Shown here piece after piece: positions 975-54,207 of a stretch of DNA of 64,000 bases. This stretch comes from Candidatus Moraniibacteriota bacterium (lineage in GTDB: Bacteria; Patescibacteriota; Minisyncoccia; Moranbacterales; UBA2206). The notes beneath the pieces were generated by a model that was not told the origin of the DNA, ran no database searches, and saw nothing but the letters and a program-made list of their open reading frames with translations. Position numbers and translations under genes: made by a program. The stretch covers positions 68,095-132,094 of the forward strand of contig JAUSNP010000006.1 in the NCBI GenBank assembly GCA_030645735.1. The letters are read 5' to 3'. Position 1 is the stretch's first letter. The number at the start of each line of letters is the position of its first letter.

Positions 975-1003
975 TCTTTCCATACGACCATATAAGGAGG
1001 GAT
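975..1003 (+). promoter_or_regulatory. conserved hairpin motif copy 1 (tctttCC-ATACGACCATATA-aGGAGGGA), 37 nt upstream of the 1040 start
   Basis: Shares the core CCATACGACCATATAAGGAGG with three other copies in the window. The 3' arm is SD-like. Confidence 0.6.
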
Positions 1004-1039
1004 TGTGCGGAGTGAATATAAAAATAAAATTGAAACAAA

Positions 1040-1435
1040 ATGTCGAAAGTGCGTGTCTATTCAATTGATAAAAATGAAAGATATCAAGCGGTGGGTGATT
1101 TGTTTGAGATTATTGTGAATCTCAGAACCAAGAAAGAGGTTATCGATTTTCTGATTGGTTTATTTACTCCTAGTGAGATGTTGATGATTGCTCGACGCAT
1201 TCAGATTGCTGGGATGTTGTTGGAGGATGACAATTATGAAATAATAAGAAAGAAGCTGAAGGTTAGCAACCAAACAATAAGCAAGGTTGAGTATTGGTTG
1301 AAAAGTGATGAGCAAAAAAACAAAATTATTGTAACTAAGTTAAATCAAATCAAGAAATCTAGCAAGGGCAAATTGAACAGAAGTGTTCTGGATAAATTTG
1401 CGCATCACCGCGCGCTAAAAGAACTAATAAGTTAA
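1040..1435 (+). CDS. YerC/YecD-family TrpR-like DNA-binding protein
   Basis: 131 aa. LFTPSEMLMIARRIQIAGMLLE...NQTISKVEYWLK fits the Trp-repressor-like HTH of the YerC/YecD family. Confidence 0.6.
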   Translation: MSKVRVYSIDKNERYQAVGDLFEIIVNLRTKKEVIDFLIGLFTPSEMLMIARRIQIAGMLLEDDNYEIIRKKLKVSNQTISKVEYWLKSDEQKNKIIVTKLNQIKKSSKGKLNRSVLDKFAHHRALKELIS

Positions 1436-1436
1436 A

Positions 1437-1465
1437 TGCTTCCATACGACCATATAAGGAAGGAT
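1437..1465 (+). promoter_or_regulatory. conserved hairpin motif copy 2 (CTTCC-ATACGACCATATA-AGGAAGG), abutting ATG 1464
   Basis: Imperfect inverted repeat (CTTCC / GGAAG pair) flanking an invariant 13-nt loop. The 3' arm doubles as an RBS-like AAGGAAGG. Confidence 0.6.
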
Positions 1466-2564
1466 GATGTTGAGGTTACGAGATATGAAAAAAGGAAAGA
1501 TGAAGATACTTTTTATTACAAGAACAAGAACGGCAAGGGGCGGCCATATTGTTTTTACAAATCTCGTTCGGGAATTGCATAAAGAAGGATATGATGTGAC
1601 ACTGACGACTTTTGAGTCAAAAGAAAAGATGAAGAGAGTTGTTCCATATTGGGAAAATATTGATGTTAATTTTGTTGAAATACCCCATCTAGAGGATCGT
1701 GATTCTGAGCAGATGGCTCATATTGAAGCAGCTTCTGTCTACATTAGAGAAAATATAGATAAGTTTGACAAAATAATTTTAGATAGTTGGTTCATAGCTA
1801 TGGCTGCGTTGAGGGAAAATATTTTTTCTGATAAAATTTTCCATCTAGTTCAGAGCAATTCGGCTTTTGCGCCTGAGAATAAGGGAGAATTTTGGAAATC
1901 AGAATTGTTCAATTTATTGCCATTTACACCCATGAACAGAATTATCGTTTCTGAATCATTGGCATTACATTTTAAAGAGAAGTATCGTAAAGATTTTAAA
2001 ACTATGCATTTATTTCTGGATGAGGTATATTTGAAAAATGAGTTTAATGTTAAATCTAGAGAGATATTAAAAATAGTTTCTTCAAGTGCAACTTTTAATC
2101 TTGCAACGAAGGGCTTGAATTTCTTGTTAGAACAATTAGAAAAAGTTAAAGAACTAAAATTTGAACTAACTCTTGTTTCTGGAGATGTGATAAAAAAAGA
2201 TTTGAGCGTATATTCTTTTCCAATAAAGGTGGTGGGCGCAAAAAATCCGACTGAGATGGTCGAAGAACTTGGCAAGCATGATGTTTATGTAAATACTTCA
2301 ACGAAAGAATCTTTTTGCCTGGCGCTTGCGGAGGCTATGGCAATCGGTATGCCAGTCGTAGCCTTGGATTCTGTGGGTAATCGTGAATATATGGATGGCG
2401 AGAATGCAATTTTTGTAGAAAAAGAAGAAGATTTTATCCCTGGACTTTTGAAAATGAAAGACATAGAATTTAGAAATAAAATAAGTGTGAAAGCAAAAGA
2501 AAGTATGCGCAGATATACACTTAAAAATTCAGTTAAAAGTTTGAAGGAGATTGTAGGTATTTAG
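1464..2564 (+). CDS. glycosyltransferase family 4 (GT4, group 1)
   Basis: NTSTKESFCLALAEAMAIGMPVV...ENAIFVEKEE is a GT4 EX7E-type C-terminal motif. The true start is probably ATG 1500 (MKILFIT) after AAGGAAAG. Confidence 0.8.
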   Translation: MMLRLRDMKKGKMKILFITRTRTARGGHIVFTNLVRELHKEGYDVTLTTFESKEKMKRVVPYWENIDVNFVEIPHLEDRDSEQMAHIEAASVYIRENIDKFDKIILDSWFIAMAALRENIFSDKIFHLVQSNSAFAPENKGEFWKSELFNLLPFTPMNRIIVSESLALHFKEKYRKDFKTMHLFLDEVYLKNEFNVKSREILKIVSSSATFNLATKGLNFLLEQLEKVKELKFELTLVSGDVIKKDLSVYSFPIKVVGAKNPTEMVEELGKHDVYVNTSTKESFCLALAEAMAIGMPVVALDSVGNREYMDGENAIFVEKEEDFIPGLLKMKDIEFRNKISVKAKESMRRYTLKNSVKSLKEIVGI

Positions 2565-2572
2565 ACAAATAT

Positions 2573-2606
2573 TCATCCTTCCATACGACCATATAAGGAA
2601 GGATTA
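2573..2606 (+). promoter_or_regulatory. conserved hairpin motif copy 3 (TCATCCTTCC-ATACGACCATATA-AGGAAGGATTA)
   Basis: 9/10-bp stem with the same 13-nt loop, 44 nt upstream of ATG 2650. Confidence 0.6.
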
Positions 2607-2649
2607 AAAAAGATGGGATATATAATAAAGTTAAAGTCGAGGTAAATTT

Positions 2650-3015
2650 ATGGGCATCAAGGTTGAGTTTAATCCAGATCTGGCGTTGCGGGATATTGCG
2701 GAATTTAAGAATGGCAATCGCAAATTGGAAGAATGTGTTCCAGAAAATTTGGAGATTGGAAAAGTTTATGATTTTTTGAAATCAGGCCAGCGTTTGTATT
2801 ATTTGAGTGATAGTGAATTTTATGGCAATGGTCAATTGCCGCTTATGAAAACCAGTGGTAATGAAAATCTATCACGACCATTGGCGAGTATAAAAATTTT
2901 AGAGGCGACACATTTTTTAGATCAGGGTGAAGTGTGGACGAAAGGAAAATATAAAGTCATCGAGATTTTTAATGATGATAAAATTCATTTTGAAGCATGC
3001 AAAATAATTGGGTAA
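2650..3015 (+). CDS. hypothetical protein
   Basis: 121-aa ORF downstream of hairpin motif copy 3. No recognisable motifs. Confidence 0.4.
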   Translation: MGIKVEFNPDLALRDIAEFKNGNRKLEECVPENLEIGKVYDFLKSGQRLYYLSDSEFYGNGQLPLMKTSGNENLSRPLASIKILEATHFLDQGEVWTKGKYKVIEIFNDDKIHFEACKIIG

Positions 3016-3027
3016 AAGATAAAATTC

Positions 3028-3348
3028 ATGGAATTTAAGAAAATTGAAAGTGGTGTGCTCAAAACCGCAAGAGATTATTCAGAGAAATATGGAATTGAAG
3101 CTGATGCTGATTTTGCTATGCATAAACTTTATGAAGAAGTCGGGGAGTTGTCCGAAGCTTATTTAACATACAAAAAGAAGAGTCGTCCAGAAAAATTTAC
3201 AACCGAAGCTGAAGTTAAAAATAAATTAGCATATGAATTGGCGGATGTCGCGGGAATTGTCATGGTGATAGCGGAAAAATTAAACATTGATTTGGAAGAT
3301 GCAATTAATCGTAAATGGATCATAAAAGAATGGGAAAGAAAGAAATAA
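3028..3348 (+). CDS. MazG-like nucleotide pyrophosphohydrolase
   Basis: EEVGELSEA and ELADVAGIVMVIAEKLNIDLEDAI fit the MazG-family EEXXE/D helices. Confidence 0.7.
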   Translation: MEFKKIESGVLKTARDYSEKYGIEADADFAMHKLYEEVGELSEAYLTYKKKSRPEKFTTEAEVKNKLAYELADVAGIVMVIAEKLNIDLEDAINRKWIIKEWERKK

Positions 3349-3995
3349 TAAAAAAAATAGAAATTGAGGCCAAGAAGTTTTTTGTGGGCGCGAGCGGTTG
3401 TCATGATTGGACGCATGTAGAGAGAGTGCGCGTACTGGCTATGCGGATCGGTAAAAAAGAAAAAGCGGATTTGTTTGTTTTGGAAACAGCTGCGCTTCTA
3501 CATGACATTGGGCGTAAGGAAGAATTGAAGGCGCAGGGAAGTTTTTGTCATGCAGAAAGAGGTGCGGAAATAGCAAAAGTTATTTTGAAAAAGTACGAAT
3601 TTAATCAGGAGCAAATTGATAATATCTTTCATTGTATCCAATCTCATCGTTATCGAAACAGCTATGTCCCAACAACACTAGAGGCAAAAGTACTGTTTGA
3701 TGCAGATAAGTTGGACTCGACCGGTGCAGTTGGTATAGGTAGGCTATTTCTTTTTGCAGGCAGTTCACATGGCTCCGGCAGGTTGCATTCTGGCAATGAG
3801 AAAAAATTAGCAAAAACCAAGAAGGATTATTCATTCACAGTTGAAGATACTGCTGCGATGGAATATTATACCAAGATTAAAAATATTGAAAAAAGAGTCT
3901 TGACTAAATCTGGCAAAAAAGTAGCTCACGAAAGACAAAAATTTGCAGCCGATTTTTTTCGAAGACTTGAAAAGGAAGTAGAGGGAATAATTTAA
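3315..3995 (+). CDS. HD-domain phosphohydrolase
   Basis: HDWTHVERV, LLHDIG and DADKLD form the H...HD...D metal-binding motif series. It overlaps the 3' end of the upstream gene; M at 3330 is an alternative start. Confidence 0.75.
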   Translation: MDHKRMGKKEIIKKIEIEAKKFFVGASGCHDWTHVERVRVLAMRIGKKEKADLFVLETAALLHDIGRKEELKAQGSFCHAERGAEIAKVILKKYEFNQEQIDNIFHCIQSHRYRNSYVPTTLEAKVLFDADKLDSTGAVGIGRLFLFAGSSHGSGRLHSGNEKKLAKTKKDYSFTVEDTAAMEYYTKIKNIEKRVLTKSGKKVAHERQKFAADFFRRLEKEVEGII

Positions 3996-4819: not shown

Positions 4820-5355
4820 CAGAACTGAGGATTGTAAAATTTTTTAATCGGTTGGGGCGAGGGACGGCAATTGATTGGGTAACTGATTTTGTCAGTCGAA
4901 TTTTGTATTTGGCAGTTTTCTGGATGCTTTTTGCAATTGCGATTTTTTTCTTGGCAGAAAATGGAAAAATTATTGCGCTTGCTATGACTATTGCGGCTGG
5001 ATTGCATTTTCTGATTAGCGAAGGCGTGTTTAAGCGTTTGTTGTTGAAATATTTCGCAAAGATTCGACCATATGTTGAGCATCCAAAAGAGGTTTTTCCT
5101 ATTGGCCGAAGACATAGTGATTCATCCTTTCCATCTAGTCATATGTCAGCCAATCTAGCCGTGTTTACGGTTCTAGCATATTTTTATCCGAGTATGTGGC
5201 TGATTATCACATTGCTTGTGTTGCTGATAGCTTTCGCGCGCTTGCACAATGGTATGCATTATTTATCTGATGTGGTGGCGGGCATAGTTTTTGGGATTGT
5301 GTATGGAATTGTAGGAATTTATTTGTCTAATGCTGTTGTAAGCGCGTTGCTTTGA
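4816..5355 (+). CDS. PAP2-family phosphatase (membrane)
   Basis: KIRPYVEH, PSSH and ARLHNGMHYLSDV match the three PAP2 motifs KX6RP, PSGH and SRX5HX3D. Multiple TM helices. Confidence 0.8.
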   Translation: MTELRIVKFFNRLGRGTAIDWVTDFVSRILYLAVFWMLFAIAIFFLAENGKIIALAMTIAAGLHFLISEGVFKRLLLKYFAKIRPYVEHPKEVFPIGRRHSDSSFPSSHMSANLAVFTVLAYFYPSMWLIITLLVLLIAFARLHNGMHYLSDVVAGIVFGIVYGIVGIYLSNAVVSALL

Positions 5356-6876: not shown

Positions 6877-7578
6877 ATGGAGAAAATAAAAAAAATGAAG
6901 AAAAAAATGTTGGTCATGCTAGCGCTTGTAGTGTTGGCGACGTCTGGTGGCCTTGCTACTTTTGCATCTGCCGAAGAAGTGGCTCAAGATGAGTCAACTG
7001 TGCTTGTGGCAAGTAATCAAAAAATGACTCAGCAACGAGAAGTGAATAAATTGGAATTGCAACAGAAGCGGGATGAAATGAAGGCGCAACGGGAAGAGAC
7101 AATGAAACAAAAAAGAGCAGAAAGGTGCGAGATGGTTCAAAAGCGGATTGCTGAGCGAGCAACTAGCGTTGACACCGCCAAGGAAAAGCATCTAGCAGTC
7201 TATAAAAATATGCAGGCTCGAATTCAGAAGTTCATTGATCGCTTGAGCGCAGCAGGCATGGATACGACAAAGGTGGCTGCTGATTTGACTGTGTTGCAGA
7301 CAAAAATCCAAAAATTCACTGATGATCAAAAAGCATATGAAGCAACTATGGATGCTGCCAAAAATTTTGCGTGCGGTGAAACTGATATCGCGGTTGTAGC
7401 CGACGCCAAAACAAAGATGCAGACAGCTCGAGCAGCTTTGAAAGTTGTGCATGCGGATGCAGCGGATATCAGAGTTTTTATGCGCCAGACAGTTATGGTG
7501 GATATCTTGGCTTTGAAAAAACAAGTTGCTGAGACTAAGCTTGAGGATGCAGAAAAAGCTGTGACTGAGAAAAACTAA
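6877..7578 (+). CDS. secreted coiled-coil protein (hypothetical)
   Basis: Signal peptide MLVMLALVVLATSGGLATFASA, then K/E/Q-rich helical repeats. Confidence 0.5.
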   Translation: MEKIKKMKKKMLVMLALVVLATSGGLATFASAEEVAQDESTVLVASNQKMTQQREVNKLELQQKRDEMKAQREETMKQKRAERCEMVQKRIAERATSVDTAKEKHLAVYKNMQARIQKFIDRLSAAGMDTTKVAADLTVLQTKIQKFTDDQKAYEATMDAAKNFACGETDIAVVADAKTKMQTARAALKVVHADAADIRVFMRQTVMVDILALKKQVAETKLEDAEKAVTEKN

Positions 7579-7672
7579 AGTTAAAGCAAGGACTTAGACA
7601 GCAATTGAAGCTGAATCAATAGAATAAATAATTAAACTTTAGTTTTTCTTTCAATTAATTAGAATAAAAAAT

Positions 7673-7936
7673 ATGAAAAAAATATTTACCATTTTGGGAT
7701 TGACCTTGTCGGTTGTTTTGCTAGCTGGTTGTAGCAGCAAGACTGAGCCTCAAAAAGAGAGTGGTGCGCCGGCGCAAGTCAAAGAAGCTCCAGCAGCAGT
7801 TGTTTTGCCAGAAGCTGTTGTAACCAAGCCAGGTGAGACTGCCGATGACGAGGTGAAAAACATTGAAAAAGACTTGCAATCCATTGATGATGTCAGTCTA
7901 AATCAAGGGCTTTCAGATGATGACTTGGGACTATAA
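7673..7936 (+). CDS. small lipoprotein (hypothetical)
   Basis: Signal peptide with an LLAGC lipobox. Confidence 0.55.
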   Translation: MKKIFTILGLTLSVVLLAGCSSKTEPQKESGAPAQVKEAPAAVVLPEAVVTKPGETADDEVKNIEKDLQSIDDVSLNQGLSDDDLGL

Positions 7937-7990: not shown

Positions 7991-8147
7991 GAACCTACTC
8001 ATAATCTCCATATTCTGCTGCGAAATTGAAATTCCGGCTGCAAACCGTTCAAAGCTCGTCGGGTTATATGATAGCCCTTCTCGCTTTTCACGATTTTCGC
8101 TCGAAATTTCAATCTCTCGCGACGAAAGAGAGATTATGAGTAGGTTC
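7991..8147 (+). repeat. structured inverted-repeat element copy A (candidate ncRNA / MITE-like), 157 nt
   Basis: 18-bp perfect terminal inverted repeat GAACCTACTCATAATCTC / GAGATTATGAGTAGGTTC. An internal ~80-nt core is about 85% identical to copy B at 23844-24028. Confidence 0.7.
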
Positions 8148-8580: not shown

Positions 8581-8620
8581 ACCAGGTAGTTGTAAATTCT
8601 TTATTGAGTTTGCAATTTTA

Positions 8621-10186
8621 TTATGAGAGTTTGATCCTAGCTCAGGATGAACGCTGGCGGCGTGGATAAGGCATGCAAGTCGAGAGGGTTTAGACCCTCG
8701 GCAAACGGGTTAGTAATACATAGGAATCTGCCCTGAAGTCGTGAATAACTCGGAGAAATCCGTGACAATGCACGATAGTCTCTACGGAGTAAAGATTTAT
8801 CGCTTCAGGAGGAGCCTGTGTCCTATCAGCTTGTTGGTAGTGTAATGGACTACCAAGGCTATGACGGGTAGGGGGTGTGAGAGCACGACCCCCAACATTG
8901 GGACTGAGACACTGCCCAAACTCCTACGGGAGGCTGCAGTCGAGAATATTCGTCAATGCCCGAAAGGGTGAACGAGCGACGCCGCGTGCGGGATGAAGGC
9001 CCTTGGGTCGTAAACCGCTTTTCTTAGGGAAGAATGTAATGACGGTACCTAAGGAATAAGAGGCTACTAACTCTGTGCCAGCAGTAGCGGTAATACAGAG
9101 GCCTCAAGCGTTATCCGGATTTATTGGGCGTAAAGAGCATGTAGGCGGATATATTAGTCGGATGTCAAATCTTCGAGCTCAACTTGAAAACTGCATTCGA
9201 AACGGTATATCTAGAGACAGTCAGAGATCAATGGAACGTATGGTGTAGCAGTGAAATGCGTTGATATCATACGGAACACCAAAGGCGAAGGCATTTGGTT
9301 AGGGCTGTTCTGACGCTGAGATGCGAAAGCGTGGGTAGCGAATGGGATTAGATACCCCAGTAGTCCACGCCGTAAACGATGCATACTAGGTATTAAGAGA
9401 ATCGACCCTCTTAGTGTCGTAGCTAACGCGTTAAGTATGCCGCCTGGGAAGTACGGTCGCAAGACTAAAACTCAAAGGAATAGACGGGGATCCGCACAAG
9501 TGGTGGAGCATGTGGTTTAATTCGACGATAAGCGGGACACCTCACCATGGTTTGAAACTTAGCTGCATTATACAGAAATGTATAAGCCTTCGAGGGTGCT
9601 AAGCAGGCGCTGCACGGTTGTCGTCAGCTCGTGTCGTAAGATGTTCTGTTAAGTCAGGAAACGAGCGCAACCCCTATCGTGTGTTATATTGTCACACGAG
9701 ACTGCCCGGAACAAAGCGCACTTCGTGCGCAATGATCAATTATCAATAATCAATTTTCATTAAATGGAAATTGTAAATTGAAAATTGTAAATTGCGTGCT
9801 TTAGTAAAGCGCGTTTCGTTCCGGGAGGAAGGTGGGGATGACGTCAAATCAGCGTGGCCCTTTGACACCATGGGCAACACACGTGCTACAATGGCCAATA
9901 CAAAGGGTTGCCAAGTCGCGAGACGGAGCTAATCCCAAAAAATTGGTCTCAGTTCAGATTGGAGTCTGCAACTCGACTCCATGAAGCCGGAATCACTAGT
10001 AATCGTGAATCAGAACGTCACGGTGAATACGTTCTCGGATCTTGTACTCACCGCCCGTCACACCAAGAGAGCCGGTAACACCCAAAGATCCTGTTTTAAA
10101 GCAGGAGCCACGGTGGGATCGGTAATAAGGGTGAAGTCGTAACAAGGCATCCGTAGCGGAAGCTGTGGATGGATCACCTCCTTTCT
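8621..10186 (+). rRNA. rrs: 16S ribosomal RNA with a ~118-nt expansion insertion at 9707-9824
   Basis: 5' end GAGAGTTTGATCCTAGCTCAG and 3' end GGATCACCTCCTTTCT. The insertion lies between GACTGCCCGG and GGAGGAAGGTGGGGA. Confidence 0.95.
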
Positions 10187-23843: not shown

Positions 23844-24028
23844 GAGCCTGTTCATAATCTCAACGCTAATAATAAAAACTAACATATTGCTTGCCTGCTA
23901 AAATATTCCTAATTTCGGCTGCAAACCCTTCAAAGCTCGTCAGGTTATCTCGATAGCCTTTCTCACTTTTCATGGTTTTCGCACGAAATTAGAAAATTTT
24001 ATCTAGGCATGAGATTATGAACAGGCTC
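23844..24028 (+). repeat. structured inverted-repeat element copy B (candidate ncRNA / MITE-like), 185 nt
   Basis: 19-bp perfect terminal inverted repeat GAGCCTGTTCATAATCTCA / TGAGATTATGAACAGGCTC. The core is about 85% identical to copy A. TAGAAT lies 17 nt upstream. Confidence 0.7.
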
Positions 24029-25335: not shown

Positions 25336-25414
25336 TGTCATCCTGAACCTCTTGCCTGCTGGCAGGGATTCAGGGTCTACCCAGAGTGGATTCCGGGTCA
25401 AGCCCGGAATGACA
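25336..25414. repeat. TGTCAT...ATGACA palindromic hairpin element, copy 1 (degenerate left arm)
   Basis: It ends with the ATTCCGGGTCAAGCCCGGAAT hairpin followed by ATGACA. The right arm is near-identical to the 54107-54207 element. Confidence 0.6.
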
Positions 25415-25430
25415 GATTAATATAAACAAT

Positions 25431-26180
25431 ATGAAAAACCTGATTCAAGACACGCTGAATAAAATCAAACAAGAACATATCGCGCCAGAGCCGAGATGGA
25501 AGTTTTTGTCACGCAAAATTGGAATTTGGATCGGAATCATCGCGGTGGTTGCCTTGGGAGCGCTAGTGATTTCTGTGGTCTATTTTTTGCTTGCGCAATT
25601 GGACTGGGATGTCTATCCGTTGATGCATCAAAACATATTTACATATGGGCTATCGGTCATGCCATATTTTTGGCTGGCATTTTTGGCTGTTTTGGCATTG
25701 CTGGCATTTTTGGCGGTGCGCAAAACTGAGAATGGCTATCGTTTCAATTGGTTGTTGATTGTTTTTTCAATTGCGATTGGAATTTTGGCAATTGGATTTT
25801 TCATATCGCGTGTCGGTTGGGGTGGACGATTCAACGGGATGATGATGCATCAAATGCCATATTACGCGCAAAATGTTGCGACCAAGGAAAAGCAATGGAT
25901 GCAACCCGAGGCAGGTTTTCTGGCTGGCACGATTCATACTGTTTCAGGCAGTACGCTTGAAATTGATGACCTAAATAATAGTACTTGGAATGTTCAACTG
26001 ACCAAGCAAACACTAATACGTCCATCGGTTACGCTTGCGCAAGGACAGATGATAAAAATCATCGGCACGCGAAAAGACGCACAGAATTTTGTGGCGTCAG
26101 AAATCCGTCCGTGGGTGGGTCAAGGGATGATGGGCTCAGGACAGGGCCGAGGAATGATGAACAATTTCATCAGAAACTAG
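25431..26180 (+). CDS. multi-TM membrane protein downstream of ECF sigma (putative anti-sigma/partner), C-terminal Gly-Met-rich tail
   Basis: About 3-4 TM helices. The C-terminus is GQGMMGSGQGRGMMNNF. Confidence 0.5.
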   Translation: MKNLIQDTLNKIKQEHIAPEPRWKFLSRKIGIWIGIIAVVALGALVISVVYFLLAQLDWDVYPLMHQNIFTYGLSVMPYFWLAFLAVLALLAFLAVRKTENGYRFNWLLIVFSIAIGILAIGFFISRVGWGGRFNGMMMHQMPYYAQNVATKEKQWMQPEAGFLAGTIHTVSGSTLEIDDLNNSTWNVQLTKQTLIRPSVTLAQGQMIKIIGTRKDAQNFVASEIRPWVGQGMMGSGQGRGMMNNFIRN

Positions 26181-40851: not shown

Positions 40852-40875
40852 ATAAAAATTAAATCCATATACTCA

Positions 40876-40915
40876 AAAGCCCCTTGTTTTGACGCAAGGG
40901 GCTTTTTCTTGTTTT
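40876..40915 (+). terminator. rho-independent terminator (hairpin AAAAGCCCCTTGTTTTGACGCAAGGGGCTTTTT)
   Basis: Near-identical to the hairpin at 41813-41847. Confidence 0.8.
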
Positions 40916-40959
40916 GTGATATAATATAAAAAATAAAGTTTTAAAAATTTATAAATCTC

Positions 40960-40992
40960 AATCCTTCCATACGACCATATAAGGAAGGATTC
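40960..40992 (+). promoter_or_regulatory. conserved hairpin motif copy 4 (AATCCTTCC-ATACGACCATATA-AGGAAGGATT)
   Basis: Perfect 9-bp stem, 12 nt upstream of ATG 41005. Confidence 0.6.
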
Positions 40993-41004: not shown

Positions 41005-41760
41005 ATGAATCAAAAAATTCGAATTGAGATTGCAGTGGGATTTATTGCGGCACTAGCAATTTTGCTGGGTATATATTTTTGGAATAATGCCTCACAAATT
41101 TCGACAGGCGCACCAACAACCTCGAATATTGTTACTAAACCAGTTCAAAAAATGTGTACGCAAGAAGCTAAGTCTTGTGATGATGGCTCTTATGTTTCTA
41201 GAACTGGGCCGAATTGTGAATTCGCGGCATGTCCAAGCACAGATGCTTCGGCGGATATTGAGAAAAGTCGTATTGCCAATCCTGCTTCGATCAATTGCAC
41301 TCAGGAAGGTGGTCAGCTGGAAATTCGCACTGGAAATGACGGTGGGCAAGTTGGTTTTTGCAAATTTTCTGACGGATCAGAGTGCGAGGAATGGCAATTT
41401 TTCCAGGGTGAATGTAAATCAGGAAATAAAATTGCAGTTGAGTTTCCACTAGTAAATGCGGAAATTTCCAGTCCAATTTATGTTTCTGGTCGAGCGCGTG
41501 GCACATGGTTTTTTGAAGGTAGCTTTCCAGTAGAAGTTTATGATAGCAATAACAAATTGCTCGGCAGTTCGACCATCAGTTTTGCTCCCAAATCAGCGGA
41601 TGATACTTGGATGACCGAAAATTTTGTAAATTTTTCCGGTAGTGTAAAATTTAGCCAGCCTACTACAGCTAGTGGATATCTGCTTCTCAAGAAGGACAAT
41701 CCATCTGGCAATTCTGCGACGGATGAAGCATTGAGGCTAAATGTAAAATTCAAAAAGTAG
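41005..41760 (+). CDS. secreted Cys-rich protein with DUF333-like (putative hemolysin) domain
   Basis: N-terminal TM/signal. CTQEGGQLEIRTGNDGGQVGFCKFSDGSECEEWQFFQGEC fits the DUF333 pattern. Confidence 0.5.
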   Translation: MNQKIRIEIAVGFIAALAILLGIYFWNNASQISTGAPTTSNIVTKPVQKMCTQEAKSCDDGSYVSRTGPNCEFAACPSTDASADIEKSRIANPASINCTQEGGQLEIRTGNDGGQVGFCKFSDGSECEEWQFFQGECKSGNKIAVEFPLVNAEISSPIYVSGRARGTWFFEGSFPVEVYDSNNKLLGSSTISFAPKSADDTWMTENFVNFSGSVKFSQPTTASGYLLLKKDNPSGNSATDEALRLNVKFKK

Positions 41761-41812
41761 CGTATGTCTATAAATTAGAGGGCTTTAACTTTGAAAAATA
41801 TTTATAACTATC

Positions 41813-41847
41813 AAAAGCCTCTTGTTTTGACGCAAGGGGCTTTTTTT
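41813..41847 (+). terminator. rho-independent terminator (duplicate of the 40876 hairpin)
   Basis: AAAAGCCTCTTGTTTTGACGCAAGGGGCTTTTTTT. Confidence 0.8.
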
Positions 41848-42002
41848 GATAGAATTATAGGGTTAAATAAGGCTTTAAAATAAGGTAAGGATCTGTCTTT
41901 GCGATTCGCCAGCTGGCGAAGAAGCAATCTCGTTTGGGTGAATTAAACCTTGAGATTGCCACGTCGTCCGAGGCGGACTCCTCGCAATGACAATATAAAA
42001 TT

Positions 42003-44711: not shown

Positions 44712-46283
44712 ATGAAAACCAATAAAAAAATCGTGGGGGCGATGACAGTTTTTGTCATGTCTTTTGCAGTTACGAGTGCAACTTGCTCAGCAGAGGATGT
44801 TGTGACTACGGATGTGGCAGTAAATAATATTGCGAGTAATGCCGGCATCTCATATAGTAGACTCAATCTAACGGATAAAATCGTTTCATCTGATATTAAA
44901 AACAGCACAATCACAGGAGCTGATATTAAACGGGGTGCTGTGAGTAGTGGGGATATAAAAAATCGAACTATTGCTTCAATTGATATCGAAAAAGGAGCCA
45001 TTAAAAGTGGTAGCATTGCAGATGATTCTATAGGTAATGATAAATTGAAAGAAGATGCTGTAACTTCGGATAAGATTCAAGACGGCGCAATCGTAACTGG
45101 AGACATTGCAACTGACACTATTTTGGCAGGCAACATTGCGACTGGCGCAATTGGCACAGCTGAAATTCTGGATGGCACGATTCTGGATGCTGACATTAGT
45201 CCTGCTGCAGCCATTGCTTATAGCAAATTACTGTTTGCTAATAATATAGTTGCTGGAGATATCGCAACTGGGGCTGTTGCCACAGATGAAATTCTAGATG
45301 GAACAATTTTGACTGGAGACATTGCTGCCGACACTATTTTAGCAGGCAACATTGCGACTGGGGCAATCGGCACAGCTGAAATTTTAGATGGTACGATTTT
45401 AGGAAGCGACATTGCCAATACTACTATTGCCGCAGCTAATATAGTGGCTGACACTATTGACGGAGCTCAGCTAGCTGACACGATCACATTAGATGCTAAT
45501 CTAGTTTTGAATGGCGCCAATGTGACCGGTAATGGCACTCTTGGTGAAGTTGGCTCGCGTTGGTCAACAATTTATGCTGACACTTTGAATTATTCAAGCG
45601 CTATTGCAGATGATAATTCAGCCAACACAACTGTTGCTTTCGGAGATAATAGCACAAGTGATGCAGTGAATATTACAGCTAATACAACCATTACTGATGC
45701 GGAATGGTCAATTTCGAATGCAGGTGTTGCCACATTTGCTTCGATAGACGGTGTTGTTGGGTCAATAACTCCTGCCGCTGGTTCATTTACGACACTCTCG
45801 GCGACAGGCGCGTTGACAACTGGTGACATCACTGCTTATGGTGCAACTGCAAATAATAACCTAACTGTTAATGGCAAAGGAACTGGCAGTGTGAATTTGG
45901 GTGATGCGGATAGTGACGTTTCAGTTATAAATGCTTTGACGATTGGAAATAGCGCCACCATTACTGCTGGCGGATTGATAATTACAGCTGGTGGGTTGGA
46001 TATGACTGGCGATTCCATAACCAATGTTACGCAAGTCGGTGATTCCAATGATAATTTGGCAATTACAGGTGATGACTGGGATGTTACAAATGGTGGAGTT
46101 GCTACATTTAAAGGTTTGACTTCGACTAGCGCTGTTGATTTAGATGGGGCATCTTCAGTTAGTGTGCCAGCTGCGACATTGGGCGGGGCATGCTCAGTTT
46201 CTGGTGCAATTGGTGTCAATCCAGCTGGAAATGCAGGTGAGAGAATAATGGTTTGTAATGGAGCTAATTGGTTGGCAAATTAA
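44712..46283 (+). CDS. secreted repeat protein (probable beta-helical surface protein/adhesin) with C-terminal Cys loop
   Basis: Signal peptide. Dozens of ~10-aa x-I-x-x-G-D-I-x-x-x repeats. Internal ~105-bp tandem DNA repeats at 45098-45414. C-terminal CSVSGAIGVNPAGNAGERIMVCNGANW. Confidence 0.55.
   Translation: MKTNKKIVGAMTVFVMSFAVTSATCSAEDVVTTDVAVNNIASNAGISYSRLNLTDKIVSSDIKNSTITGADIKRGAVSSGDIKNRTIASIDIEKGAIKSGSIADDSIGNDKLKEDAVTSDKIQDGAIVTGDIATDTILAGNIATGAIGTAEILDGTILDADISPAAAIAYSKLLFANNIVAGDIATGAVATDEILDGTILTGDIAADTILAGNIATGAIGTAEILDGTILGSDIANTTIAAANIVADTIDGAQLADTITLDANLVLNGANVTGNGTLGEVGSRWSTIYADTLNYSSAIADDNSANTTVAFGDNSTSDAVNITANTTITDAEWSISNAGVATFASIDGVVGSITPAAGSFTTLSATGALTTGDITAYGATANNNLTVNGKGTGSVNLGDADSDVSVINALTIGNSATITAGGLIITAGGLDMTGDSITNVTQVGDSNDNLAITGDDWDVTNGGVATFKGLTSTSAVDLDGASSVSVPAATLGGACSVSGAIGVNPAGNAGERIMVCNGANWLAN
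45098..45414 (+). repeat. intragenic tandem repeats (~105-bp units, about 3 copies) inside the surface repeat protein gene
   Basis: 45098-45200 and 45311-45414 are about 88% identical, and the middle unit has diverged. Confidence 0.7.
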
Positions 46284-54106: not shown

Positions 54107-54207
54107 TGTCATTCCGGCCTTGACCCGGAATCTGCTCGCTGTAATTGTGAATCTTAATTTATTTCAGTGAAACGCAAAGTAGATCCCGGGTCAAGCCCGG
54201 GATGACA
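54107..54207. repeat. TGTCAT...ATGACA palindromic hairpin element, copy 2 (intact), inserted between porA and porB
   Basis: The left arm ATTCCGG-CCTTGAC-CCGGAAT and right arm ATCCCGG-GTCAAGC-CCGGGAT are each hairpins and are mutually inverted. Confidence 0.65.

Follow-up and report, generated by a model that had tools for sequence, protein, structure and literature searches.

A conserved palindromic element on both sides of a TrpR-like gene in Moranbacteria, a candidate DNA operator

The window analysed here is a 64,000-nt stretch of a Candidatus Moraniibacteriota contig (JAUSNP010000006.1, positions 68,095 to 132,094, forward strand), whose gene content includes a bacterial 16S rRNA gene, secA and murB. 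We describe a short element with inverted-repeat arms that stands on either side of a gene for a 131-aa protein of the TrpR/YerC(HisR) family and recurs elsewhere in the window, and we weigh whether it is the DNA operator of that protein.

Four copies of one element and an adjacent TrpR-like gene

The 13-mer ATACGACCATATA has four exact matches in the window, all on the + strand, at 982, 1444, 2583 and 40969. With up to two mismatches allowed there were seven matches against 0.63 ± 0.82 expected, a number that none of 100 shuffles reached; the two-mismatch matches at 5062, 15913 and 61458 lack flanking arms and are chance-like, and a relaxed pattern (CCWTWY-N6-AYAWGG, one mismatch allowed) gave no further convincing copy within the window. 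The copies far exceed chance, and the repeat is real and conserved. An earlier note on this DNA, made by reading its letters, had described four + strand stem-loops with an invariant 13-nt loop; exact matches and the shuffle test confirm the four copies, and the invariance holds over a longer stretch than was claimed, 21 nt (TTCCATACGACCATATAAGGA) flanked by arms of the ATCCTT/AAGGAT type, whereas the loop length does not hold, the unpaired loop ATACGACCATATAA being 14 nt. The element and the genes next to it are arranged as follows (related loci in other genomes are referred to by L numbers).

980-997, 1442-1459, 2581-2598 and 40967-40984, + strand: cores of the four exact copies of TTCCATACGACCATATAAGGA
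974-1003, + strand: element copy 1, ATCTTT CCATAC GACCAT ATAAGG AGGGAT; core ends 42 nt before the TrpR-like gene; putative autoregulatory operator
1040-1435, + strand: TrpR/YerC(HisR)-family helix-turn-helix (HTH) protein, 131 aa, candidate binder of the element (PF01371, TIGR02531, PDB matches, predicted fold)
1436-1465, + strand: element copy 2, ATGCTT CCATAC GACCAT ATAAGG AAGGAT; directly 3' of the TrpR-like stop codon (1433-1435), outer arm ending 34 nt before the next start at 1500
1500-2564, + strand: GT4-family glycosyltransferase, putative target (Pfam); N-terminus conserved in the L014 and L024 homologues, which also have the element upstream
2575-2604, + strand: element copy 3, ATCCTT CCATAC GACCAT ATAAGG AAGGAT; followed by a TATAAT box (2621-2626), GAGG (2639-2642) and an ATG (2650)
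2650-3995, + strand: putative target operon of a 121-aa open reading frame (ORF; 2650-3015), a MazG-like gene (3028-3348) and an HD-domain gene (3315-3995) (Pfam)
40917-40925, + strand: extended -10-like promoter box TGATATAAT upstream of copy 4, a consensus match only
40960-40991, + strand: element copy 4, AATCCTT CCATAC GACCAT ATAAGG AAGGATT; outer arm ending 14 nt before the ATG at 41005
41005-41760, + strand: secreted DUF333/Gmad2 protein, putative target (Pfam)

The protein encoded between copies 1 and 2 belongs to the TrpR/YerC(HisR) family. It scores 47 bits against PF01371 (Pfam Trp_repressor; cut-off 27) and passes TIGR02531 (NCBIfam YerC/YecD) marginally, at 43.1 against a cut-off of 42.2; its sequence matches in the PDB are 3G1C, 3FRW and 3KOR, with E values of 1e-7 to 4e-6. 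In a structure model with a mean predicted local distance difference test score of 74, whose C-terminal 25 residues are of low confidence, Foldseek gave target-normalised template modelling scores of 0.77-0.83 to 3KOR, 3FRW and 3G1C and of 0.62-0.75 to E. coli TrpR chains. Neither Pfam nor the fold indicates a catalytic domain. The predicted recognition helix reads LKVS-NQTISKVEYW, and a conserved C-terminal extension, LDKYxHHRFLKELL, which is absent from HisR and TrpR, was modelled with low confidence.

Linkage and co-variation across lineages

Scanning one genome per species for exact matches to the query CCATACGACCATATAAGG returned 14 loci, ten of them Moranbacteria-type metagenome-assembled genomes with 14 copies and the other four chance matches in unrelated bacteria, within coding DNA rich in GC; seven further relevant loci came from a metagenome scan. 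In total we counted 25 distinct window-type copies, three of which deviate from the 18-nt core by one base. All but two are intergenic, every copy with a visible downstream gene has the same orientation as that gene, and many begin 0-11 nt after the upstream stop codon. The right outer arm is replaced in six of the 25 (AAGTGTGA, AAATGTGG and similar) with the left arm and core kept, and at L003 the right arm is kept and the left is not; because the core is retained where an arm has been replaced, the sequence is conserved where the stem is not. The related copies were found by exact-core scans, so their invariance between genomes is partly due to the search mode; approximate searches inside the recovered loci gave only the three single-base variants and two doubtful sites with four mismatches. 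At L001 (4756-4773, same as L020), a degenerate copy, CTATACAACTACATAAGG, with four mismatches lies 49 nt downstream of an exact copy and before an NDK gene, and may be a decayed tandem site.

Linkage to the regulator gene was assessed in 14 lineages (the window, L005, L011, L019 and L025-L034; proteins 43-100% identical), that is, four window-type loci with the gene and ten progressively more distant homologue loci, down to 43% identity. In all 14, an element lies upstream of the TrpR-like gene, its core 20-146 nt from the ATG, and a second element follows the TrpR-like stop codon by 3-44 nt. At L029 this downstream element falls between convergent genes, and at L026 and L028 it is more than 200 nt from the next gene with a terminator-like hairpin in between; the downstream copy is therefore tied to the regulator gene and not to the gene that follows. 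In most of the divergent lineages the only copies seen are the two or three at the regulator gene, and in the seven most divergent ones for which some 10 kb next to the gene was covered on at least one side (L025-L030 and L033) that DNA gave no copy beyond that locus. Within the window clade the site has spread to other genes, about 4-8 places per genome. The earlier note had considered that the motif might be a generic repeat in random orientation and position, or might have no counterpart in relatives; the copies are uniformly sense-oriented, and the element accompanies the TrpR-like gene throughout the linkage set.

Thirteen lineages share the skeleton arm-CCWTAY-N6-ATAWGG-arm', in which 6-bp half-sites stand 6 bp apart and a palindromic flank usually adds 4-6 bp. 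Copies are alike within a genome and different between genomes:

Window: TCCTT CCATAC GACCAT ATAAGG AAGGA
L025: AAGT CCATTC AACCAC ATAAGG ACTT
L029: ATTT CCATAT AACCAC ATAAGG AAAT and ATGT CCATAT AACCAC ATATGG ACAT
L030: GT CCATTC GTCCAT ATATGG AC
L031: ATTT CCATAT GTCCAT ATAAGG AAAT
L032: ATTT CCATTC GTCCAC ATATGG TAGA
L026 and L028: ATTA CCTTAT GATGAT ATAAGG TAAT
L027: GTTA CCATAT ATTAAT ATATGG TAAC (GTTACCATATATTAATATATGGTAAC), perfectly palindromic over 26 bp
L034: a distinct palindrome of 20 bp, of the type CACATCAATA-TATTGATGTG

The two-fold symmetry of the element is kept through double changes: these occupy 43 cells across the dyad, against 22 ± 3.9 in shuffles (none of 500 reached the observed count) and 6-17 with a slid partner column, a result that fits a DNA dyad and an RNA stem alike. 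The predicted recognition helix also appears to track the central 6 bp, with ISK accompanying GACCAT, INK accompanying GTCCAY, ITK accompanying AACCAC (three of three lineages) and TRK accompanying GATGAT, and the most divergent recognition helices pairing with the most divergent sites; this correspondence is entangled with phylogeny and is suggestive only.

A further regularity concerns spacing. The window motif can also be read as CCATACGA-CCATATAA-GG, with an extra forward half-site 8 bp away; the upstream copies of L026, L028 and L031 hold one extra 8-nt unit (CCTTATTT-CCATATGT-CCATATAA-GG), and the L034 palindromes hold 8-nt duplications, the upstream L034 copy likewise having an extra 8-nt unit. 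Tandem TrpR dimers bind half-sites at 8-bp steps (PDB 1TRR was among the structures in the fold search), and by analogy tandem half-sites at such steps could explain part of the asymmetry of the element.

HisR is the B. subtilis YerC; its operators are 20-bp palindromes of the form cacTTTA-N6-TAAAgtg, about half of hisR genes are preceded by a HisR site, and HisR is often autoregulated (PMC9413887). The Moranbacteria element and its neighbour share with HisR and TrpR the protein family and fold (PF01371, TIGR02531; PDB 3G1C, 3FRW, 3KOR, 1TRO), a dyad with half-sites around a 6-bp centre (7-6-7, 20 bp, the same geometry with different bases), a site upstream of the regulator's own gene, and extra half-sites at 8-bp steps that recall tandem TrpR binding. 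They differ in the half-site, which is CCWTAY and not TTTA or GNACT; in a palindrome that reaches 26-30 bp around an asymmetric centre near-invariant within the clade; in the second site after the regulator gene in every lineage examined; in a protein about 30 aa longer, with its conserved C-terminal tail; and in putative targets that are nucleotide house-cleaning and envelope genes, with no his or trp genes among them.

RNA hairpin, promoter or mobile repeat

The earlier note had given each copy a stem of 7-9 bp. Copies 3 and 4 have 8-9 perfect pairs (AATCCTTCC/GGAAGGATT) and copy 1 has eight, two of them G-U (ATCTTTCC/GGAGGGAT), in agreement with that description; copy 2 departs from it, its stem being interrupted (five pairs, a G-G mismatch and two pairs). 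Hairpins are predicted in all four contexts of 80-89 nt, at -9.2 to -13.5 kcal/mol, but copy 4 alone folds unusually well relative to shuffled sequence (z = -2.9; z = -0.5 to -1.7 for the other three).

It had further been proposed that the copies lie 0-45 nt before the start codons, and that the 3' arm is the only Shine-Dalgarno (SD)-like sequence of the downstream genes and might be sequestered by the hairpin. Conserved N-termini set three of the starts at 1040 (MSKVRVYSIDK), 1500 (MKILFITR) and 2650 (MGIKVEFNPDL); the GT4 gene thus begins at the ATG at 1500, and the mechanical ORF start at 1464 was set aside as wrong. From the ends of the outer arms it is then 36, 34, 45 and 14 nt to the genes at 1040, 1500, 2650 and 41005, a range of 14-45 nt, and from the core ends 42, 40 and 51 nt to the first three. 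The gene at 1500 has an SD-like GGAAAG of its own (1494-1499), as the gene at 2650 has GAGG (2639-2642); the arm as sole SD-like sequence proved wrong for three of the four genes and stands only at 41005, where it is the nearest purine-rich stretch, ending 14 nt before the ATG, and where there is no other SD candidate.

The likeness to SD-sequestering hairpins and RNA thermometers consists in the purine-rich 3' arm of the window clade (AAGGAAGG), which pairs with a CCUUCC arm. Unlike in those systems, the arm is off ribosome-binding-site distance at three of four starts (34-45 nt); it is restricted to the window clade, relatives having TAAT, ACAT, ACTT or TAGA in its place; and the stem is often dispensable, since the right outer arm is missing in six of the 25 distinct window-type copies and the left arm in one, and the L032 copies allow only about four pairs, the core being kept in all. 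Several copies also sit upstream of the best -10 box and would be outside the mRNA. These observations rule against SD sequestration.

A broader RNA reading would make the element a cis-acting hairpin, in 5' untranslated regions or between cistrons, whose loop is offered to a protein (perhaps the TrpR-like one) or to an RNA and which acts on translation, processing or stability. The sense orientation of all copies would follow naturally, as would the many copies that abut an upstream stop codon in the way of an intercistronic element, the co-varying arms with one compensated difference within L029, and the pairing of copy 1 maintained through two G-U pairs; the -10 box that stands 12-25 nt upstream of several copies would place the hairpin at the mRNA 5' end, and CCUCCU, the anti-SD at the 3' end of the 16S rRNA, is similar to the 5' arm. 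However, six of the 25 clade copies, and likewise L032 and L030, keep the core but have no stem or only 4-5 pairs of it, the clade-specific and distant SD-like arm and the copies with a -10 box directly downstream count here too, and L027 and L034 are perfect DNA-type palindromes. Three of the four contexts fold no better than shuffled sequence, G-U mismatches in the arms (11) show no clear preference over A-C (6) and are not decisive between RNA and DNA, and no Rfam family matches: Rfam 15 gave nothing at gathering score at the element, and a permissive threshold over 900-2700 gave only chance-level matches with E above 2. We regard a hairpin of this kind as unlikely. Pairing of the loop with 16S rRNA was rejected, the only match being 6 nt (GUCGUA) inside helix 44, at chance level.

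All assignments of the promoter context are consensus matches only. Six copies (L007, L011 upstream of the regulator gene, two at L014, L027 and L031) are followed by a -10 box, often TGnTATAAT, that begins 7-9 nt past the core, which would put the centre of the site near -30, over the -35 region and spacer. In five other copies the -10 box is 20-25 nt upstream of the core; after window copy 3 a TATAAT stands at +22 from the core; and TGATATAAT lies 47 nt upstream of the core of copy 4, which starts about 35 nt past the inferred start point. Placement that is so variable and yet always near promoters agrees with a repressor and speaks against both an activator and an obligatory RNA element. 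When the window was scanned for promoters, nothing was returned at the element copies, and many copies have no recognisable promoter nearby.

That the element is itself a promoter, for a dedicated polymerase or sigma factor, is highly improbable. Its long, invariant and asymmetric motif, in strict orientation directly upstream of genes and with conservation decaying a few bases past the GG in several copies, is in keeping with such a role, and ATACGAC...TATA..GG is common to the window motif and to the T7 class III promoter (TAATACGACTCACTATAGGGAGA). The T7-like heptamer is nevertheless lost in sister lineages (ATTCAAC, ATATAAC, ATTCGTC), L027 and L034 are symmetric palindromes, one copy lies between convergent genes and others lie within coding regions, and there is no single-subunit, phage-type RNA polymerase among the large ORFs of the window. 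As a sigma-70 promoter the motif fails as well: TATAAG is without the T at -7, and a conserved -35 box is missing from the region 16-18 bp upstream. A resemblance of AACCACA to the DnaA box (seven of nine positions, in L025 and L029 only) was dropped.

In two related loci the element lies in frame within a coding sequence.

L010, 7583-7600: element in frame within a WecG/TagA gene (ORF 7144-7902)
L017, 2841-2824, - strand: element in frame within a WecG/TagA gene (WecG ORF about 2540-3283, - strand)

Here it encodes NPSIRP(Y/H)KE, and S-I-[RQ]-P-[YH]-[KM]-E stands at the same hypervariable loop in seven of the 120 best WecG homologues, the copies being seen as DNA in L010 and L017 and judged on protein sequence in the others. 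The loop is about 37-38 aa long in most homologues and 44-58 aa in the seven motif carriers. The amino-acid variants correspond to variable nucleotides of the motif (I, ATA/ATT; R/Q, CGA/CAA; Y/H, TAT/CAT; K/M, AAG/ATG), and because each of them matches a lineage-variable motif position, the comparison argues that the nucleotide motif and not the peptide would be under selection, following the specificity of the regulator.

GC-rich palindromic repeats of another kind (GTCATTCCGG..CCGGAATGAC and GAGATTGC..GCAATGAC) occur in the window at 25337-25413, 54109-54206 and 41895-41991, upstream of the genes at 25431 and 54218 and of secA. In translation they resemble WecG-loop inserts of other Moranbacteria (CHSRENGNPV..LDSRLRGND; VIASEAKQS..TLPRND), and they may be mobile hairpins in genomes of the candidate phyla radiation (CPR), comparable to repetitive extragenic palindromic (REP) elements or Rickettsia palindromic elements (RPEs). 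Such inserts imply that the WecG loop tolerates small palindromic insertions, so the element may itself have a repeat-like origin.

In its plainest form, that origin would make the element a dispersed palindromic repeat, selfish or a recombination site, with the TrpR-like gene as its associated gene in the manner of REP elements and their associated tyrosine transposases (RAYTs), and with regulation as a secondary matter. Like REP/RAYT systems and RPEs, the element consists of short palindromes that flank and co-evolve with an associated gene and are scattered intergenically and in frame in genes. Copies within a genome are near-identical at non-symmetric positions too, the L032 pair sharing 27 nt that include non-palindromic flanks; the TrpR-like gene has direct repeats on both sides; differences in gene order between genomes fall at the boundaries of the element; duplicated terminators of 35 nt enclose the DUF333 unit; and the in-frame copy occupies a hypervariable WecG loop that elsewhere holds the GC-rich inserts, as RPEs would. 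Unlike those repeats, it is present in a handful of copies (1-6 exact copies per representative genome) in strict orientation, with a small HTH protein that has no catalytic domain. All seven WecG copies share one position and one frame, which suggests that they arose once and were then kept by selection, rather than inserted repeatedly; neither target-site duplications nor a consistently adjacent transposase or recombinase were seen, and divergent lineages mostly have only two or three copies, at the regulator gene. We consider a dispersed repeat improbable, and the marks of a REP element or a miniature inverted-repeat transposable element, namely many copies in both orientations and a transposase, were not found. 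A hybrid, which we hold to be distinctly unlikely, is a self-contained REP/RAYT- or RPE-like module of the TrpR-like protein and the palindromes of about 30 bp that bracket its gene, in which the palindromes would also spread between genes and in frame into the WecG/TagA loop, could act at the DNA and RNA level and, by seeding binding sites, would rewire gene control; if true, it would be a repeat-protein partnership previously undescribed in CPR bacteria.

A candidate operator and its putative targets

We favour, at a probability of roughly 55%, the reading in which the TrpR/YerC(HisR)-family protein encoded at 1040-1435 has the element as its cognate DNA operator and through it regulates its own gene and a small regulon. 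This operator reading rests on the bracketing of the regulator gene in every lineage, the co-variation of the element with the protein, and the HisR/TrpR operator geometry. The earlier note had named the adjacent TrpR-like gene as a candidate regulator acting on an inverted-repeat operator; the comparative evidence supports this reading, and from it we infer physical binding.

A regulator dimer, or tandem dimers, would occupy the site and block RNA polymerase at promoters that overlap it or lie just upstream or just downstream, so that the protein would probably repress, rather than activate, a few targets along with its own gene. In the window clade these targets would be nucleotide house-cleaning genes (MazG-like, HD, NUDIX, Ham1/RdgB, Maf, NDK and CYTH) and envelope genes (GT4, WecG/TagA, PAP2 and the DUF333 exoprotein). 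TrpR/HisR-type repressors usually bind their operator only with an amino-acid co-repressor; the Moranbacteria protein may respond to a small-molecule effector, possibly a nucleotide.

Several observations weigh against an operator. The central 6 bp and the flanks are identical in about 25 clade copies, amounting to about 44 bits, which is far above the requirement of a regulator in an approximately 1-Mb genome and unusual for operator spacers; among all clade copies the identity extends over about 22-28 nt, the asymmetric centre included, and the exact-core scans inflate the apparent invariance between genomes. The element is asymmetric and always gene-sense, and a symmetric dimeric repressor needs neither. 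The two L029 copies differ in their arms in a compensated way (ATTT/AAAT versus ATGT/ACAT), which fits base pairing better than recognition by a protein. The correlation between recognition helix and spacer is confounded by phylogeny, and the promoters, as consensus matches that many copies lack, are a further weakness. Nor does the spacing of the bracketing sites support DNA looping between them, as their centre distances of 452-545 bp show no helical phasing (maximum R 0.42 against a 95% null of 0.54). Overlapping constraints, such as tandem half-sites, promoter overlap and an extra RNA-level or roadblock role, may lie behind the identity, the orientation, the L029 arms and the presence of a site after as well as before the regulator gene.

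Known operators offer partial parallels for these features. CIRCE, the site of HrcA, is a conserved inverted repeat (9-N9-9) found between the promoter and the start codon, always oriented with transcription; it serves as a DNA operator, and an effect on mRNA stability has been reported. The Moranbacteria element is likewise a highly conserved inverted repeat in constant sense orientation, but CIRCE has conserved arms around a free spacer, whereas here the centre is most conserved, and the regulator family and regulon are different. The WecG/TagA copy could be a roadblock or an internal control point, like the CcpA cre sites in coding regions; unlike those intragenic operators, it is kept in one frame in a hypervariable loop and follows lineage-specific operator changes.

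The genes that follow window-type copies are the regulator, GT4, the 121-aa ORF with MazG-like and HD genes, HD, NUDIX with Ham1/RdgB, Maf, NDK and CYTH, and further PAP2, YecM, valyl-tRNA synthetase, an alpha/beta hydrolase and the secreted DUF333 protein; in most lineages the neighbours of the regulator gene are NUDIX, HD, CYTH, cytidylyltransferase-like and aminoacyl-tRNA synthetase genes. The 121-aa ORF (MGIKVEFNPDLALRDIAEFK..., 2650-3015) has no family match, is conserved in other Moranbacteria, and in L005 and L032 recurs with either the TrpR-like or a cytidylyltransferase-like gene as its neighbour. Judged from these annotations, the theme of the putative targets is nucleotide house-cleaning and envelope glycosylation. 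No his or trp genes occur in any neighbourhood examined, and with none among the putative targets we rejected a HisR or TrpR orthologue with the same function.

Other features of the window stand apart from the element. Near-identical 35-nt terminator hairpins (AAAAGCCCCTTGTTTTGACGCAAGGGGCTTTTT) lie at 40873-40907 and 41811-41845, on either side of the DUF333 gene, and the terminator loop TTGACG also supplies the -35 box for what looks like a promoter (TTGACG-17-TAGAAT with TG, 41827-41855) before secA, which suggests that the DUF333 unit was inserted or that a terminator/promoter module was duplicated. The 16S rRNA gene (8619-10184) has no 23S match within the 64 kb, the next ORF starting from 10485, and the rRNA genes are thus unlinked; a 38-nt direct repeat (AATTCCGGCTGCAAACCGTTCAAAGCTCGTCGGGTTAT, 92% identical) occurs at 8030-8067 and 23911-23948, one copy about 550 nt upstream of the 16S gene. 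A 523-aa ORF at 44712-46283 matches no Pfam family and has repeats of 141 nt within it (45057-45197 and 45273-45413, 79% identical).

In the literature we found no earlier description of the motif or the regulon, nor of such a regulon in CPR bacteria. The putative regulon of this Moranbacteria-specific branch of the TrpR/YerC(HisR) family is undescribed, though the regulator family is well known, which keeps the conceptual surprise moderate. Gene regulation in uncultured CPR/Patescibacteria is little studied, and these organisms are thought to depend on salvaged nucleotides. If the element is the operator of the TrpR-like protein, it would provide a ready regulator-operator pair for Moranbacteria, in which a HisR/TrpR-type sensor is tied to nucleotide-pool sanitation (MazG, HD, NUDIX, Ham1, Maf, NDK, CYTH) and envelope glycosylation (GT4, WecG/TagA, PAP2); it would also be a clear case of an operator and a recognition helix changing in step, and of an operator held in frame within a protein loop.

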